This document shows positions 6,016-39,410 of a stretch of 64,000 bases of DNA, piece after piece (the first letter of the stretch is position 1; every line of letters begins with the position of its first letter). Below the pieces are notes generated by a model. It was not told the DNA's origin, ran no database searches, and saw only the letters and a list, made by a program, of their open reading frames with translations. The DNA comes from Candidatus Babelota bacterium (lineage in GTDB: Bacteria > Babelota > Babeliae > Babelales > Babelaceae). The position numbers and the translations under genes were made by a program. The stretch is taken from positions 334-64,333 of the forward strand of contig PLTG01000021.1 of NCBI GenBank assembly GCA_003165355.1, given 5' to 3'.

Positions 6016-6417
6016 ATGAAATCAGTAAAATATACCAGAGAAACCATTAAAGACCTCGGACAATACGATCGTGGTTTTCCAAAGTTTCAAGTTGGTGACT
6101 GCATCGAAGTTGCATTAAAAGTTAAAGAGGGCGATAAGACACGTCTTCAGATGTTTGAAGGTGACGTTATTGCGATGCACAAAAGTGGTGTTTCTTCTAC
6201 CTTTACTATTCGTCGTATCGGCGCTAATGGTATTGCTATCGAAAGAATTTTACCCTTTTATTCGCCAGCAATCGACTCTATTAAATACCTTCACCAAGGT
6301 GATGTACGTCGTTCAAAACTTTACTATATGAGAAGTCGTATTGGTAAAGCAGCTCGTGTTAAAGAAAAAGTTCTTACCAAAGAGCAAAAAAATGCTCAAA
6401 AAGCATCAGTTAAGTAA
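6016..6417 (+). CDS. rplS: 50S ribosomal protein L19
   Basis: The FQVGDCIEV...RLQMFEGDVIAMHKSG...FTIRRI pattern is typical of L19. Confidence 0.97.
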   Translation: MKSVKYTRETIKDLGQYDRGFPKFQVGDCIEVALKVKEGDKTRLQMFEGDVIAMHKSGVSSTFTIRRIGANGIAIERILPFYSPAIDSIKYLHQGDVRRSKLYYMRSRIGKAARVKEKVLTKEQKNAQKASVK

Positions 6418-6802
6418 TTGGCTCGCGCTTGGGTTCATTGTTGTTTTACCGGCCTGTTACAAGAAATTGAGTAAACAGCCTGTTTTGCATTATTATGACC
6501 AGCAACCAGCCTTAACAACAGAAGCGCATCTTGCAGATATTCCATTGCCTATCCAGGCATCTGTTCATATGCTCAGCGGATCGACTGCTACCACGACAGG
6601 GCTCACTTTTGTCAGCACTTTCTCGTTAGCAGATCTGGTCAAGTTCTATGAATTTGAGATGGAGAGGCTGGGGTGGAGACAGTTGCACCTTTTTAGTGTC
6701 ACTTCTGAAGTGTTACTGGTGTTCGAAAAGCCTGAAAAATTCTGCACCGTATCGGTCCGCCCGGATCATCGAGTGGTTATATTTTTCGGTTCTCGAGCAT
6801 AA
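6392..6802 (+). CDS. putative lipoprotein
   Basis: The track ORF 6341..6802 overlaps rplS. The internal ATG at 6392 gives MLKKHQLSNWLALGFIVVLPAC with a lipobox-like LPAC. No domain recognised. Confidence 0.6.
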   Translation: MLKKHQLSNWLALGFIVVLPACYKKLSKQPVLHYYDQQPALTTEAHLADIPLPIQASVHMLSGSTATTTGLTFVSTFSLADLVKFYEFEMERLGWRQLHLFSVTSEVLLVFEKPEKFCTVSVRPDHRVVIFFGSRA

Positions 6803-6809
6803 AGATATC

Positions 6810-6836
6810 AAAAGCCCCCAGAGATGGGGGCTTTTT
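6810..6836 (+). terminator. rho-independent terminator
   Basis: Hairpin gccccc-agagat-gggggc followed by ttttt. The 23-mer aaaagcccccagagatgggggct recurs exactly at 7540-7562. Confidence 0.7.
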
Positions 6837-6847
6837 CATTATTATAT

Positions 6848-7068
6848 GCGCCCTGCGGCCGTGTCCGCCATAGCTGCCGATTAGTTTAGCTAAAAGTTAA
6901 AACGAGAGCGACGGCTGGAGCCGCGCGCTAAGGGGCCTTGGCGATAAGTCCCCTTAACCTCCAGTCTACGTTTATCCATGCCTACCGGCTTGGCAAACTA
7001 CGACGGACAGGCCTGATCGATTACTGCCGTGCCCGCCATAGCTCGCAGAGCGACGGGGGGCGTGAAGC
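6848..7068. repeat. GC-rich intergenic island holding two copies of a dispersed repeat module
   Basis: Module CTGC..GTG(T/C)CCGCCATAGC ... GCGACGG occurs at 6848-6920 (with an AT-rich insert) and 7024-7068. A third copy lies at 47423-47475. The GC content is visibly far above the flanking sequence. Confidence 0.6.
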
Positions 7069-7268
7069 TGAAAACAGTGCGCCACAGCGCACCAAATCTA
7101 GATTTGTCGACATATCTTCGCTTCGCTCGATGAGTCTCGGCACGAGATTTTCCTCGACTTCTTATTTTATAGAAATAGCGTTCACCATATTTTTATTGCG
7201 AAATGCTAAACATATTCTTTATACTTATAATGTAAAGTAATGAAATAAAACCTAAAAGGATATGGATT

Positions 7269-7487
7269 ATGTTAAAAGTAATGAAGTATTTAACTCTTGT
7301 TTTGAGTGTAAGCTCAATAGGCTTAAGTTATGCAGCGGATTTGACAGACGCAGATTGCGAAGCCTTATCTAAAACGGCTGGCGGTGCTGCGGTATTTATG
7401 GTGCAAGGGGGAGCATGTACGGCTTCTGGCGATGGTTGGCACTTTTACAAGGGTGCTAGCACGACAGCAAACAAAAAAAGCTCTTAA
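7269..7487 (+). CDS. small secreted Cys-containing protein
   Basis: 72-aa ORF with leader MLKVMKYLTLVLSVSSIGLSYA. Followed by a terminator at 7540. Confidence 0.5.
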   Translation: MLKVMKYLTLVLSVSSIGLSYAADLTDADCEALSKTAGGAAVFMVQGGACTASGDGWHFYKGASTTANKKSS

Positions 7488-7539
7488 TGTTTGCGGGACT
7501 TTTTAAATATAAATGACCGTCTTGACTAATTTTGCAATA

Positions 7540-7572
7540 AAAAGCCCCCAGAGATGGGGGCTATCTTTTTTT
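7540..7572. terminator. bidirectional rho-independent terminator (second copy of the 6810 hairpin)
   Basis: Sequence aaaaagccccc-agagat-gggggctatcttttttt sits between convergent genes, with an A-run upstream and a T-run downstream. Confidence 0.65.
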
Positions 7573-7588
7573 AATCTAAATTTATAAT

Positions 7589-8152
7589 TTAGACGGTCTG
7601 GGCGAATTTCGCTAAAGCATCAGATCCTGACCCAGGATATCTGCTGCTGACCAACGCAGCTGTGATTAATGAACCATCAGTATCATGCATAAGGGCATCA
7701 AAAACGAATGGGCTGATATCGCAGGGAATCGTATCATTTAATACGTAGGTCTTGATAATAATCAATGCGGCAGTACGATTTTGGGCCACAAAAGGTAATA
7801 ATTGGTTGTAAAGTCTCATAAGGTCATAATTGTCGCTGGCATCATTAAGTTCTACGCAGAGATATTGTATGTCCTTAACAAACGTTTTAACGATCTCAAT
7901 ATTTGAGGTGTTAAGCGTGTAGTTTTGCCATTGCTGCATTATTGTCGTAATGTCTTCAGCCGATAAGGAGGCTGCAAGTTCTTGGTAAGTAACCGTTTCG
8001 GCGTCATAATCGATATTCATGCGGCCAGAGCTTGCGATATCGACAAGAGTTTCTGCGACTATCTTTTTCCCGAGCCCAACAGCTTTTTCGGTGGTATATT
8101 CGGCATTCAAACCGAGCGCTGTAAGCGCAATAAGAGCTATAATCTTGTTCAT
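7589..8152 (-). CDS. secreted hypothetical protein
   Basis: The internal ATG at 8152 gives the leader MNKIIALIALTALGLNAEY. The track ORF extends to 8182. Confidence 0.6.
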   Translation of the reverse strand: MNKIIALIALTALGLNAEYTTEKAVGLGKKIVAETLVDIASSGRMNIDYDAETVTYQELAASLSAEDITTIMQQWQNYTLNTSNIEIVKTFVKDIQYLCVELNDASDNYDLMRLYNQLLPFVAQNRTAALIIIKTYVLNDTIPCDISPFVFDALMHDTDGSLITAALVSSRYPGSGSDALAKFAQTV

Positions 8153-8303
8153 AAAAAAACCCCTGTATGTTAAATTATCCAATTATAATATATTAAGCAT
8201 AGCAGATCCGCTGTGAATGTAAAGTTTATGGTGAGGTTTTTTGGCAAAAGCAACGCCCAGATAGAGATCCGGGCGTTATCAAAAATAGTATGCCTATTAA
8301 TTC

Positions 8304-8720
8304 TTACTTAACAGCAGCAGAGCTTTTTGGTTCAGCAGCCACTGTCTTAGTGTGGTGACGGCAGGTTTTTTCTTCTAAGCGTTTATTTTCTTCTTTAAGT
8401 TTTCTATTTTCACGTTTAAGTGCCGCGACTTCGTCAGAAAGTTCGTCTATTTCCTGTACGAGCGCCTTATTTTCTTTGCGCAATTTACGTAATGCCGCAG
8501 AATCATCATAATCATCGCGTGGCGCAGGCGCTGCCTGCTGTACCGGCACTTGGACTACTTCTGTACGTGTTGAGCGTGGTTGAGTAAGTGCGTTGCCCAA
8601 CATGCTCCCTGCGAAACTGCCACCGAAGCTAGCTCCGAAATTTGAGCCATTGCCAGCGTATAGAACTGTTGCGCTTAAGGCTATTGTAACAAGAGTTACT
8701 CTGTAAAATATATTTTTCAT
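8304..8720 (-). CDS. secreted protein with Gly/Ser-rich region and canonical leucine zipper
   Basis: Leader MKNIFYRVTLVTIALSATVLYA. Leu occupies residues 80, 87, 94, 101, 108 and 115 (six exact heptads). Asn occupies the a positions (84, 105, 112). Confidence 0.65.
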   Translation of the reverse strand: MKNIFYRVTLVTIALSATVLYAGNGSNFGASFGGSFAGSMLGNALTQPRSTRTEVVQVPVQQAAPAPRDDYDDSAALRKLRKENKALVQEIDELSDEVAALKRENRKLKEENKRLEEKTCRHHTKTVAAEPKSSAAVK

Positions 8721-8858
8721 ATGTTTCCCCTTTTTAAATACATACTGTCCCTATCGATAAGTATGCCATAAAGGGTTTAACTATTTCAAGAATGGGGCTT
8801 TAGTTATCGCTTTTGTGAGACAGAGACGATAGTGAAATGCACGCTCTGTCAATTCTAA

Positions 8859-8888
8859 TTGAAAAATATTTGGCGCGTGTGGTATACT
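8859..8888 (+). promoter_or_regulatory. candidate sigma70-type promoter of the zinc-finger gene
   Basis: TTGAAA (8859-8864), an 18-nt spacer containing TG, then TATACT (8883-8888). Lies about 47 nt upstream of the ATG at 8935. Confidence 0.4.
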
Positions 8889-8934
8889 AGAAAATAGGGA
8901 AGTAATATATCGATTCATTAAAGGGATAATACCT

Positions 8935-9264
8935 ATGAAAAAAATAATTTCTATAATCTCGTTATTGTGCATGACACATATGCTGGCGATGCAGCAAGAG
9001 AAGATGGACTATCTTTTACAGGTGGCGGCGGAAGAAAGAGCAAAAATAGAGAGCCCGGCGTTTGTTTACAAGTCAACGTCAGTTTATAAGTGCGATTATC
9101 CTGGATGCAATAAGTCTTATTCTTTGGAAGGTTCACTTGAAGAGCATAGGTTAACGCACCGACCGAAAAATACACCATGTGATGTCTGTGGGAAACTTTT
9201 TATACATGGAGATTCAGTGCGCCAACATAAAAGATTGATGCACGCAGATATCGTAAAAAAATAA
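8935..9264 (+). CDS. secreted protein with two eukaryote-type C2H2 zinc fingers
   Basis: Leader MKKIISIISLLCMTHMLA. Finger 1 is C-x4-C-x12-H-x3-H (CDYPGCNKSYSLEGSLEEHRLTH), followed by linker RPKNTP. Finger 2 is C-x2-C-x12-H-x4-H (CDVCGKLFIHGDSVRQHKRLMH). Confidence 0.8.
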   Translation: MKKIISIISLLCMTHMLAMQQEKMDYLLQVAAEERAKIESPAFVYKSTSVYKCDYPGCNKSYSLEGSLEEHRLTHRPKNTPCDVCGKLFIHGDSVRQHKRLMHADIVKK

Positions 9265-9291
9265 GCGATTCGTTTAAAAAGGAGCTTCCTG

Positions 9292-10041
9292 TTACAAAAG
9301 AACAATGGTCTCTTGAGGAATGCCTTCAGGCCGTTCATCGATATTATTGTTTTCTAAATTTATTAAGCGTAAAGCATATAGGTTGCTTAATGGGGTAAAG
9401 CTTTCCATGGCACCATCTAAACTATTACCACTCAAATCTAATTCAGTTAAATTGGTAAAAGTACTAAATTCGGGAGGGATAGAATAAATATCGCCATATC
9501 CCAGGGTTAATTTCTTTATCTCTTTTGATACTACACCCCAATCAAAATTATGCCCTAGGGTATTGCGAGTGGCATTCAATTCTTTCAAATGAATAAATCT
9601 TTTTAATATTTTTTCCCATTTTGCGGAAAAGCGACATCCCTCCAAGGACAATCGTTCCAATTTTTCAGATATTTTATCCCAGTTAGGATCATTAGCTTTC
9701 AATTTATTATGCGAAAGACTTAAATCAGTTAAATTAACTAAAGCACCCAATATTGCAGGTAGCTGCTTTAGGCCGTTCGCTCCGATATTGAGCTTCTTTA
9801 TGTTAGTGCATTTGCTGAGTAAATCCCAGTTGAGTTGCGTAAGATCAACATTATTGAAAAGATTCAATTCCCGCAGTTCAGGACCGGCATGTTTTTTTAA
9901 TTCGTCATTAATAAACTGAATATCCTGTCCTTGCGCTTCGCGGGGACTTTTGCTTAAATCAAGAATGTTCTCTCCCGCCTGTACAAGTATGATGCTAAAA
10001 GTTGTTACATTCAGAGCAGCTTTGTAAAGTATGTTTTTCAT
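9292..10041 (-). CDS. secreted leucine-rich repeat (LRR) protein
   Basis: Leader MKNILYKAALNVTTFSIILVQA. Repeated LxxLxLxxNxL units such as LRELNLFNN, IKKLNIGANGLKQLP, LTDLSLSHNKL and LTELDLSGNSL. Paralogous to the LRR part of 57382..58413. Confidence 0.85.
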   Translation of the reverse strand: MKNILYKAALNVTTFSIILVQAGENILDLSKSPREAQGQDIQFINDELKKHAGPELRELNLFNNVDLTQLNWDLLSKCTNIKKLNIGANGLKQLPAILGALVNLTDLSLSHNKLKANDPNWDKISEKLERLSLEGCRFSAKWEKILKRFIHLKELNATRNTLGHNFDWGVVSKEIKKLTLGYGDIYSIPPEFSTFTNLTELDLSGNSLDGAMESFTPLSNLYALRLINLENNNIDERPEGIPQETIVLL

Positions 10042-10056
10042 GTTATCTCAAGAGTT

Positions 10057-38090: not shown

Positions 38091-39410
38091 GTGGTACTGT
38101 TTAATAATTTTTGGAACATTTTTAAAATTCCTGAGTTAAGTCGTAAATTGTTTTTTACATTGACGGTTCTCATCATTTATCGAATTGGTGTTTTTATACC
38201 AGTTTCTGGGATCAATATTGATTTGCTTGCAGAAACTATGAAATCATCATTCGTAGGTGGTTTTTTAAGTTATCTCAATACTTTCTCAGGAGGTGCATTA
38301 CAACAATGTGCGCTTTTTGCATTAGGTATTAGTCCTTACATCGTGGCCTCATTGGTCATGCAGTTTGCTTCCATGGCGATACCGCAATTGGAAGTGCTCT
38401 CCAAAGAGGGCGAGTACGGACGACGAATTATTAATCAGTATACGCGTTACTTAACTCTTATTCTGGCCATTGGTTATAGTTCAGGTTTGCTTACCTATCT
38501 CACAACATATGGCTTGGTTTTGACGCCGGGTATTCCTTTTAAACTGTTTTTCGTACTCTGTATTACAACTGGTGCCATGCTTGTTATGTGGCTTGGCGAA
38601 CAGATTTCGCTTTTTGGCTTGGGCAATGGCAGTTCGATGCTTATCTTTGCAGGGATTGTTTCTGCTTTTCCTATGGATCTCTATCGAACTGTTAGCCAAG
38701 TGCTTGAAGGAAACATGACTCTCATGGCAGCCCTGGGTATTCTCGCCTTCTTTATCGCGGTTGCTGCGGCAATTGTCTATTTAGAAAAGGGCGAGAGAAA
38801 GATACCGGTACATTATGCGCGACGTGTAGTCGGGCAACGTGTATATGGTGGGCAAAGTACCTATATTCCTTTTAAAATCAATAACGTCGGTGTTATGCCA
38901 GCTATCTTTGCGTCAACCATCTTAAGTATCCCTCAATTTATTTTTGGGCTTATTGGTAGTCGTTTGGGATGGGATGCGTTCACTTCATTAGCTACAGATC
39001 TTTCTCGTGGCGGGTTGATGTATAATATTTTGACCTTCTTATTAATTATTGTGTTTACGTTCGTGTATACTTCGATTATCTTCGATCCAAACGAACTTTC
39101 TCAAAATCTTAAGAAGAATGGTGGATTTATTCCTGGTATTCGTCCTGGTAAACAGACTGCTGATGAACTCGATAAGATTTTGACACGTTTAGGTCTTGTC
39201 GGGGCCATTTATCTGGCATGCTTAGCTCTTTTACCAAATATGCTTCCATTGGTGGTAGATATGCCTTTCATATTGGGTGGCACGTCACTTCTAATCGTTG
39301 TTGGTGTTGGTCTTGAGTTGAGTTCACAGTTAGAGGCATACCTACTGGAAAGTAATTATGCAGGATTTTTAACATCAGGCACTCGTATGAGATCTAGGGC
39401 AGCTCGGTGA
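38091..39410 (+). CDS. secY: preprotein translocase subunit SecY
   Basis: GTG start. 10-TM protein with FALGISPYIVASLVMQ and LGEQISLFGLGNGSSMLIFAGI. Confidence 0.97.
   Translation: MVLFNNFWNIFKIPELSRKLFFTLTVLIIYRIGVFIPVSGINIDLLAETMKSSFVGGFLSYLNTFSGGALQQCALFALGISPYIVASLVMQFASMAIPQLEVLSKEGEYGRRIINQYTRYLTLILAIGYSSGLLTYLTTYGLVLTPGIPFKLFFVLCITTGAMLVMWLGEQISLFGLGNGSSMLIFAGIVSAFPMDLYRTVSQVLEGNMTLMAALGILAFFIAVAAAIVYLEKGERKIPVHYARRVVGQRVYGGQSTYIPFKINNVGVMPAIFASTILSIPQFIFGLIGSRLGWDAFTSLATDLSRGGLMYNILTFLLIIVFTFVYTSIIFDPNELSQNLKKNGGFIPGIRPGKQTADELDKILTRLGLVGAIYLACLALLPNMLPLVVDMPFILGGTSLLIVVGVGLELSSQLEAYLLESNYAGFLTSGTRMRSRAAR

Follow-up and report, generated by a model that had tools for sequence, protein, structure and literature searches.

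A 109-residue protein with two classical C2H2 zinc fingers behind an export-type leader in Babelota: a candidate host-directed effector

Does a parasitic bacterium export a zinc finger of the eukaryotic type, and is its host the destination? This question is raised by a small gene at positions 8935-9264 of a stretch of 64,000 nucleotides from a Candidatus Babelota bacterium (assembly GCA_003165355.1, contig PLTG01000021.1, positions 334 to 64,333), which is hereafter called the window and lies on a 65-kb contig of a 1.295-Mb genome with 40% guanine plus cytosine (GC) and 92% completeness. The source genome belongs to the order Babeliales of the phylum Dependentiae/Babelota, and the relatives found by finger alignment carry the names Candidatus Babeliales, Dependentiae, Babelota and TM6. 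It has been reported that this lineage consists of obligate protist parasites whose accessory proteins are mostly leader-bearing (PMC6561590, PMC4378268). The gene encodes a protein of 109 amino acids (aa), which is read here, with a probability of roughly 0.55, as an exported, host-directed zinc-finger effector candidate, and which belongs to a class of such candidates found across the phylum, where it is a small member, confined to its species and atypical.

The zinc-finger gene is real and intact, and the open reading frame (ORF) is exactly as it had been described in an earlier, sequence-only reading of the window. Its parts are as follows:

8935..9264, plus strand: coding sequence of the 109-aa leader plus two-finger protein, stop codon included, read from the sequence
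8935..8991, plus strand: leader, residues 1-19, with n-region MKK, h-region IISIISLLCMTHMLA and a proposed cleavage between MLA and MQQE or between LAM and QQE
8992..9084, plus strand: spacer, residues 20-50, predicted as helix to residue 39 and then as a low-confidence loop, mildly acidic, isoelectric point (pI) 5.0
9085..9159, plus strand: finger 1, residues 51-75, YKCDYPGCNKSYSLEGSLEEHRLTH, C-x4-C and H-x3-H, with 51-75 as the best stretch of PF00096
9160..9177, plus strand: inter-finger linker R76-PKNTP-81, six residues between H75 and C82, from the sequence and the alignment with YY1 (1ubd)
9178..9243, plus strand: finger 2, residues 82-103, CDVCGKLFIHGDSVRQHKRLMH, C-x2-C and H-x4-H, with 81-103 as the stretch of PF13894
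9244..9264, plus strand: C-terminal tail ADIVKK and stop codon, resembling the PKKIIKK tail of paralogs on contigs C17 and C40 of the same genome

First of all, the two fingers themselves carry the argument. Finger 1 is C53-DYPG-C58-NKSYSLEGSLEE-H71-RLT-H75 (C-x4-C-x12-H-x3-H), finger 2 is C82-DV-C85-GKLFIHGDSVRQ-H98-KRLM-H103 (C-x2-C-x12-H-x4-H), and in an alignment of 41 sequences C53, C58, H71, H75, C82, C85 and H98 are invariant. The hydrophobic core consists of Y51, Y62 and L68 in finger 1 and of F89 and V95 in finger 2, but T80 replaces the first aromatic residue of the latter. The scan with the Pfam zf-C2H2 profile (PF00096), which had been put forward as a check, gave 31.2 bits against a gathering cut-off of 25.2 (E 2.4e-7, two stretches), and PF13912 (zf-C2H2_6) gave 30.2 bits against a cut-off of 25; a scan of the protein with NCBIfam gave no match. 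Among PDB sequences, phmmer ranked the designed six-finger protein Aart first (E 4e-13) and then YY1 (E 1.2e-12), and the finger region was matched by 14,274 representative proteins at E of 1e-3 or less. Moreover, a six-frame regular-expression scan of the 1.3-Mb genome found 14 frames with a finger match, seven of them outside the finger genes, all single and taken as chance, and seven within finger genes, six of which have at least two fingers. Because of the profile, PDB, representative-protein and six-frame results together, the fingers can be regarded as real, far beyond chance.

The predicted fold agrees with the profiles. The AlphaFold2 model, with the 41 aligned sequences as input, has a mean predicted local distance difference test score (pLDDT) of 89.6 and consists of a helix over residues 2-39, a loose loop over 40-50 and two strand-strand-helix units, with a pLDDT of 94-96 across much of the fingers and a mean of 59 for residues 41-50. 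In finger 1 the strands are at 51-52 and 61-62 and the helix at 65-75; in finger 2 the strands are at 80-81 and 88-89 and the helix at 92-108. A Foldseek search with the model placed the fingers of WT1, KLF4, ZBTB, Zif268 and TFIIIA at the top, with probability 1.00 (WT1, KLF4 and Zif268 included). Thus the ligand spacing, the Pfam score and the predicted fold bear out the proposal of two C2H2 fingers with classical eukaryotic spacing; by sequence and model, the domain is a eukaryote-type classical C2H2 tandem, predicted to bind zinc. A Ros/MucR regulator was considered and set aside, as the sequence-only reading had also argued: the Pfam scan gave no match to PF05443 at E of 1 or less, and two tandem classical fingers are present instead.

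In addition to the fingers, the protein has an N-terminus which fits a Sec (general secretory) signal peptide in charge and hydropathy, with a positive n-region MKK and a hydrophobic core of 15 residues (I4-A18) whose best 10-residue Kyte-Doolittle mean is 2.84; the putative site in M-L-A before M has Ala at -1 and Met at -3. As a leader-like N-terminus, the leader claimed earlier from the letters is thereby supported, as it is by its likeness to the leaders of the paralogs, and export of the protein is probable by these features. Cleavage would fall near A18/M19, for which the leaders of paralogs and relatives serve as the analogy. A lipoprotein was considered and rejected, for there is no lipobox of the pattern [LVI][ASTVI][GAS]C and S-L-L-C12 has Leu at -1, whereas a typical lipobox L-P-A-C is found in a nearby gene (6341-6802) of the same genome.

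The export machinery found in the genome comprises a signal peptidase I gene, two secretins and two ATPases of the type II secretion system type, and the ORF that closes the ribosomal-protein operon (38091-39410) is presumed from this position to be secY. No homolog of VirB4 or FlhA/SctV, the type IV and type III cores, was found in the genome. This corresponds to what is reported for the phylum: type II secretion is the sole system detected in Babela massiliensis, two copies of gspD are core genes of the phylum, 44% of the proteins of Chromulinavorax, and most of its ankyrin proteins, have a signal peptide and are taken to be secreted into the host, and eukaryote-like proteins with signal peptides in Dependentiae are treated in the same way (PMC4378268, PMC4776705, PMC6561590).

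From these features we infer the following course. Translation would start at ATG 8935, and the unfolded chain, led by its N-terminal leader, would pass through SecYEG and be cut by signal peptidase I. The full-length protein has 12.5 kDa and the predicted mature form about 10.4-10.5 kDa with a pI of 8.7; this mature protein, of about 10.4 kDa, would take up two zinc ions and fold into two beta-beta-alpha fingers behind a short helix. Exit would then be by the secretin-based type II-like system or by outer-membrane vesicles, the only routes known for the lineage, and in the host the fingers would bind nucleic acid or protein. Given the mass of about 10.4 kDa and the pI of 8.7, entry into the nucleus could occur by passive diffusion in the absence of a nuclear localisation signal (NLS), and DNA there would be one possible ligand.

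The protein does not stand alone in its genome, in which about six more finger genes are spread over contigs C17, C30 with two and C40 with three, of which one is fragmentary. In the Pfam test, four of four own-genome paralogs scored above the cut-off, and two further finger frames come from the six-frame scan. The full-length paralogs consist of a hydrophobic leader with a K-rich start and an end of A/S, M/L, E/Q, then a spacer and two to four fingers, which are joined by linkers of TGEKP, SGAKP or TGEQP. Their last two fingers have C-x4-C/H-x3-H and then an H-x4-H end, followed by a short basic tail, as in the 109-aa protein, and C-x2-C in the final finger occurs in the paralogs of C17 and C40. 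Since the layout of the last two fingers and the basic tail is shared with the paralogs, these sequences suggest that the 109-aa protein descends within the finger family of its own genome and was not acquired separately. As for the state of this family, C17:2214-2672 and C40:10951-11409 are near-identical copies of a 153-aa gene for a leader plus three fingers, but finger 1 of the C40 copy has Tyr in place of its first zinc-binding Cys (KYVYPHC, against KYVCPHC in C17), and a 43-aa fragment of finger sequence, C40:12221-12349, lacks an in-frame start codon; on account of the lost Cys and the fragment, turnover and decay appear to go on in the family.

Across the phylum, a finger above the cut-off was found in 46 of 261 genomes and in 29 of 145 genera, in a patchy pattern. 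That is to say, the earlier statement that C2H2 fingers are rare in bacteria does not apply to Babelota, in view of these 46 genomes and the additional genes in the source genome itself. Some Babelota genomes have tandem genes with up to 12 fingers in a strict 28-residue period. In the sampled loci, a leader is present on 22 of 24 Babelota finger ORFs, as against 9 of 78 in Endozoicomonadaceae, and of 31 Babelota proteins with leader and fingers, 17 have an NLS-like basic cluster directly ahead of the first finger, as against 18 of 505 (3.6%) other leader-bearing ORFs of the source genome in the same test; these leader and NLS counts include paralogs, which are not independent events, and the choice of start codon favours leaders, but the contrast is still large. 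Examples of the clusters are KKRKR, GKRKR, SRKRP...KRQKK and AKRKFE...SKRTKISKPK, and such clusters precede the first finger in Babelota loci L009, L014, L019, L033, L034, L078, L092 and L097.

Finger matches also occur outside the phylum. In an Endozoicomonadaceae metagenome-assembled genome (MAG), CBDDPF01 (L042, L046, L054, L059, L064 and others), there are tandem finger genes of 184-266 aa, and the finger proteins of this family start directly at the finger (MPEYTC..., MGEHTC...) with no leader. Pseudomonas spp. (L045, L048, L074, L085, L096) have proteins of 913-958 aa with five to six fingers in several genomes, and further matches were seen in Cardinium, Candidatus Endonucleobacter and one Heimdallarchaeota MAG. 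The arrays of the Dehalococcoidia MAG CAXXBX01 (L036-L039) lack a leader and have near-identical repeats and many short frames beginning in mid-array (MRTHTGERPYEC...); they are possibly not bacterial genes but contamination from a eukaryote or a disrupted repeat region.

For the 109-aa protein as a whole, no ortholog turned up among 40 relatives, five genomes of the same genus among them, the best match there having 36% identity over the fingers only, and an exhaustive HMMER search of 1.84 billion representative proteins returned no full-length homolog other than the protein's own cluster, with no homolog of spacer residues 20-50, so that the N-terminal half is an orphan; the other matches listed cover mainly the finger region, at 29-46% identity. 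A word-based homolog search found only the protein itself, and a search of the genome contigs with the protein found no relative.

The surroundings of the gene were then compared between genomes. The features in question are:

8859..8888, plus strand: promoter-like site with TTGAAA, an 18-nt spacer and TATACT with TG before it, 10 of 12 consensus positions
8920..8926, plus strand: Shine-Dalgarno-like AAAGGGA, 8 nt before ATG 8935, read from the sequence
8304..8720, minus strand: divergent neighbour, a 138-aa leader-bearing coiled-coil / leucine-zipper protein (Pfam scan, locus comparison)
9292..10041, minus strand: convergent neighbour, a 249-aa leader-bearing leucine-rich repeat (LRR) protein (LRR_4 48.6 bits, LRR_8 47.6 bits)
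6800-10056 of the window; 2770-4145 of L030; 2580-3130 of L031; 8760-12645 of L032: variable gap, from the locus comparison

Both neighbours named in the sequence-only reading are real according to the Pfam scan. In three same-genus genomes, whose MurC is 76-89% identical, the order from trmD-rplS-lipoprotein to murC-merR-yidC is kept, and a leucine-zipper protein with 49-59% identity lies between the lipoprotein gene and murC (G001, G003, G004), but the zinc-finger gene, the LRR gene and genes for proteins of 72 aa and 197 aa are absent from the syntenic locus. The idea of a small island holding the zinc-finger, LRR and leucine-zipper genes therefore stands in part: the first two, like the genes for 72 aa and 197 aa, are species-specific additions, and the third is conserved across the genus and does not belong to it, so that by locus comparison the island is better seen as an insertion beside a conserved leucine-zipper gene. 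Across the genus, the stretch from the lipoprotein gene to murC is a hotspot, in which each species has different, unrelated small leader-bearing ORFs around the conserved leucine-zipper gene. On these sequence comparisons, the zinc-finger gene is a species-specific addition in a hotspot of variable, presumably exported proteins. The lineage of protist parasites and this variable locus of small leader-bearing proteins fit the setting of an effector.

The same gene and neighbourhood are present in three further metagenome assemblies, in two of which the DNA is identical; the third is 99.84% identical over 8.3 kb, and the zinc-finger gene is without differences in any assembly. Samples that contain the gene are ENA ERZ27254231, JGI 3300036876 and JGI 3300014838. 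With a local identity of 99.84-100%, this comparison is uninformative on selection on the zinc-finger gene. Eukaryotic contamination was considered and rejected, for the gene, on a contig of 65 kb, has rplS/trmD on one side and murC/yidC on the other, and the three other assemblies show this arrangement too; a recent foreign origin was likewise rejected by base composition, the gene having 39% GC against 40% for the genome. Against the Joint Genome Institute (JGI) assembly 3300036876 (L110), the window has 13 mismatches in 8,294 aligned bases, 10 of which are within 8433-8496. This cluster of 64 bp lies in the heptad region of the leucine-zipper gene on the minus strand, other parts of the locus being almost identical, a pattern that suggests either a recombination tract or hypervariability of this patch.

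The start of the gene needs some attention. The end of the second hexamer of the promoter-like site is 46 nt upstream of ATG 8935; the site is a consensus match only, and shuffled controls contain no fewer such sites than the region does. Public gene calls differ on the start, giving 97 aa from M13 (P0001, without the leader) or 109 aa from M1 (P0151). Because the public start calls disagree, automated annotation can hide the export signal of the leader-plus-finger class: a gene start placed at M13 drops the leader, so the export tags of the class can go unnoticed.

Several points weigh against an exported, host-directed effector. The cleavage region M-L-A before M is not the textbook A-x-A, and its residues at -3 and -1 are only moderately typical. 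AlphaFold2 predicts an unbroken helix for residues 2-39, a shape that an uncleaved signal anchor could have as well. Moreover, the leader alone says little because, by a crude hydropathy test of the whole source genome, 512 of 1,247 ORFs of at least 90 aa (about 41%) have a leader-like N-terminus without a further membrane segment; this is close to the 44% of proteins that carry signal peptides in Chromulinavorax destructans (PMC6561590). Type II secretion delivers proteins outside the bacterium, and a host vacuole membrane, if there is one, would still have to be crossed. As for the nucleus, a search for the NLS that would go with a nucleomodulin, as had been proposed for this protein, found none in spacer residues 20-50 (4 K/R to 5 D/E), neither four K/R in five residues nor a bipartite pattern. 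The Krueppel seven-residue linker H-TGEKP-Y/F-x-C is replaced by H-RPKNTP-C; the linker described earlier as reminiscent of TGEKP is indeed there, but at six residues it falls one short of TGEKPY/F-x, and the aromatic residue is missing. The helix positions -1/2/3/6 of finger 1 are L64/G66/S67/E70, and with E65 and E69 also on the recognition helix, they are unfavourable for DNA contacts. Two fingers alone usually have weak affinity for DNA.

Judged from these residues, finger 1 looks more like a finger that contacts protein or RNA, and finger 2, with H91/D93/S94/Q97 at the same positions, is compatible with base contacts. Because the NLS-like cluster and the TGEKP linker are lacking and finger 1 is acidic, the nucleomodulin reading, which is reasonable for the class, is weaker for the 109-aa protein than for its relatives.

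Among the alternatives, the one which survives best is that the protein is exported by Sec and then retained by the bacterium: it would remain in the periplasm, or an uncleaved N-terminal helix would hold it in the inner membrane, and without ever reaching the host it would have a bacterial role such as zinc handling or contact between envelope proteins. The uninterrupted helix of residues 2-39, the non-canonical M-L-A site and the high share of crude ORFs with such N-termini, many of which must be envelope proteins, would suit it; but the NLS-like clusters of the wider family make sense only inside a eukaryotic cell, a species-specific gene in a hotspot of variable small leader proteins better suits interaction with a host, and classical C2H2 fingers are not known to have a periplasmic role. 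Retention in the envelope is accordingly regarded as improbable. A still more doubtful explanation is that a longer poly-zinc-finger paralog left this gene behind as a remnant which is decaying or has no function, its youth being the only reason for its persistence. Two fingers only, a degenerate linker, an acidic finger 1, no NLS-like cluster and no ortholog are what such a remnant might show, and decay does occur in the family, as in the C40 copy (VYPHC against VCPHC) and the 43-aa fragment. However, the ORF is intact and keeps its eight zinc ligands together with the F/Y and L/V residues of the core, model confidence is high over both fingers, promoter- and Shine-Dalgarno-like signals precede the gene, the identical protein is found in four independent assemblies, and the gene's GC of 39% matches the genome. 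The least probable of the three, a cytoplasmic product translated from ATG 8971 (M13) and acting as a small bacterial nucleic-acid-binding regulator, has in its favour one public gene call of 97 aa, the five Met codons within C12-M24 and the existence of bacterial zinc-finger regulators (Ros/MucR; PMC12491435), but neither a Shine-Dalgarno-like motif nor a promoter-like site was seen before M13 by sequence reading and promoter scan while AAAGGGA precedes M1, all paralogs of the source genome and 22 of 24 Babelota relatives keep a hydrophobic N-terminus, Ros/MucR similarity is lacking, and one would not expect a regulator of core genes to be absent from congeners.

The host-directed effector is thus the reading kept here. 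A wider proposal may be attached to it, which is speculative and, taken as a whole, unlikely: the leader-(NLS)-poly-C2H2 proteins of about one fifth of Babelota genomes would be a so far unrecognised class of sequence-programmable DNA-binding nucleomodulins of protist parasites, delivered by Sec and type II secretion, a bacterial counterpart of the transcription activator-like (TAL) effectors made from fingers borrowed from eukaryotes, and the 109-aa protein would be a minimal member that diffuses into the nucleus and competes with a YY1-like factor of the host for the site or partner of that factor.

Dependentiae are widespread and almost uncultured protist parasites. Zinc fingers are missing from the published inventories of their effectors, in which ankyrin, LRR, F-box and WD40 proteins are listed. 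Classical fingers tagged with a leader, many of them with motifs like those of nuclear import, suggest that host gene regulation may be interfered with directly. In this class the 109-aa gene is a modest and rather atypical member, but it is the minimal and easily synthesised case, with about 90 residues in the mature form.

Compared with known systems, the fingers are closest to the eukaryotic TFIIIA/Krueppel-type C2H2 proteins (YY1 fingers 1-2, WT1, KLF4, Zif268; PF00096), with which they share the ligand spacing, the Y/F-x-C...F/Y...L/V core, the predicted beta-beta-alpha fold and the tandem arrangement. Fingers 1-2 of YY1 (1ubd) align without a gap, and their linker GPRVHV also has six residues and is not of the TGEKP type. 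In contrast, the 109-aa protein is bacterial, stands behind a Sec-type leader, and has two fingers only and no KRAB/BTB-like domain; the identity is about 30-45%, mostly at structural residues, and the recognition positions of finger 1 are acidic or neutral. Ros/MucR proteins resemble it in being bacterial and in having a Cys2His2 zinc site used for DNA binding, which in the 109-aa protein would be a possible function. However, Ros/MucR has a single, differently spaced finger in a larger globular domain and is cytoplasmic, with no leader.

The other Babelota leader-plus-poly-C2H2 proteins (the tandem genes of MAG CAWKFG01, G007, and the C17, C30 and C40 paralogs) have the same sequence of leader, spacer and fingers, a similar leader end (A/S, M/L, E/Q) and a place in accessory, fast-changing loci. 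They differ in having 3-12 fingers, HTGEKP linkers, long acidic spacers and often a KKRKR-type cluster, none of which is found in the 109-aa protein, and the identity is at most 36% and confined to the fingers, so that they are not orthologs of it. Signal-peptide proteins of Dependentiae with ankyrin, LRR, F-box or WD40 domains, of which the LRR neighbour is an example, likewise join a bacterial leader to a eukaryote-type domain in the same lineage, and the route out of the cell presumed for them is Sec plus type II secretion; they have also expanded in accessory regions (PMC4378268, PMC4776705, PMC6561590); the module of the 109-aa protein differs in being a nucleic-acid-binding type of domain. 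The term "zinc finger" is absent from these three Dependentiae genome papers. In Kistimonas (Endozoicomonadaceae), an enrichment of zinc fingers has been reported from domain counts and interpreted via the Ros/MucR literature (PMC12491435). The term "C2H2" does not occur in a 2021 review of nucleomodulins (PMC7819608), no classical zinc-finger example is named in the passages checked, and the literature searched turned up no classical C2H2 bacterial nucleomodulin.

Outside the bacteria, the secreted nuclear C2H2 effectors MoHTR1 and MoHTR2 of the fungus Magnaporthe oryzae have nearly the same size and layout as the 109-aa protein. It has been reported that MoHTR2 has 110 aa, consists of a signal peptide and a C2H2 finger, and enters rice nuclei (PMC12488382). 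These are proteins of the fungal secretory pathway that act in plants. The likeness is one of design and not of ancestry, and in this sense MoHTR2 is the closest functional analogy of the exported zinc-finger candidate described here.

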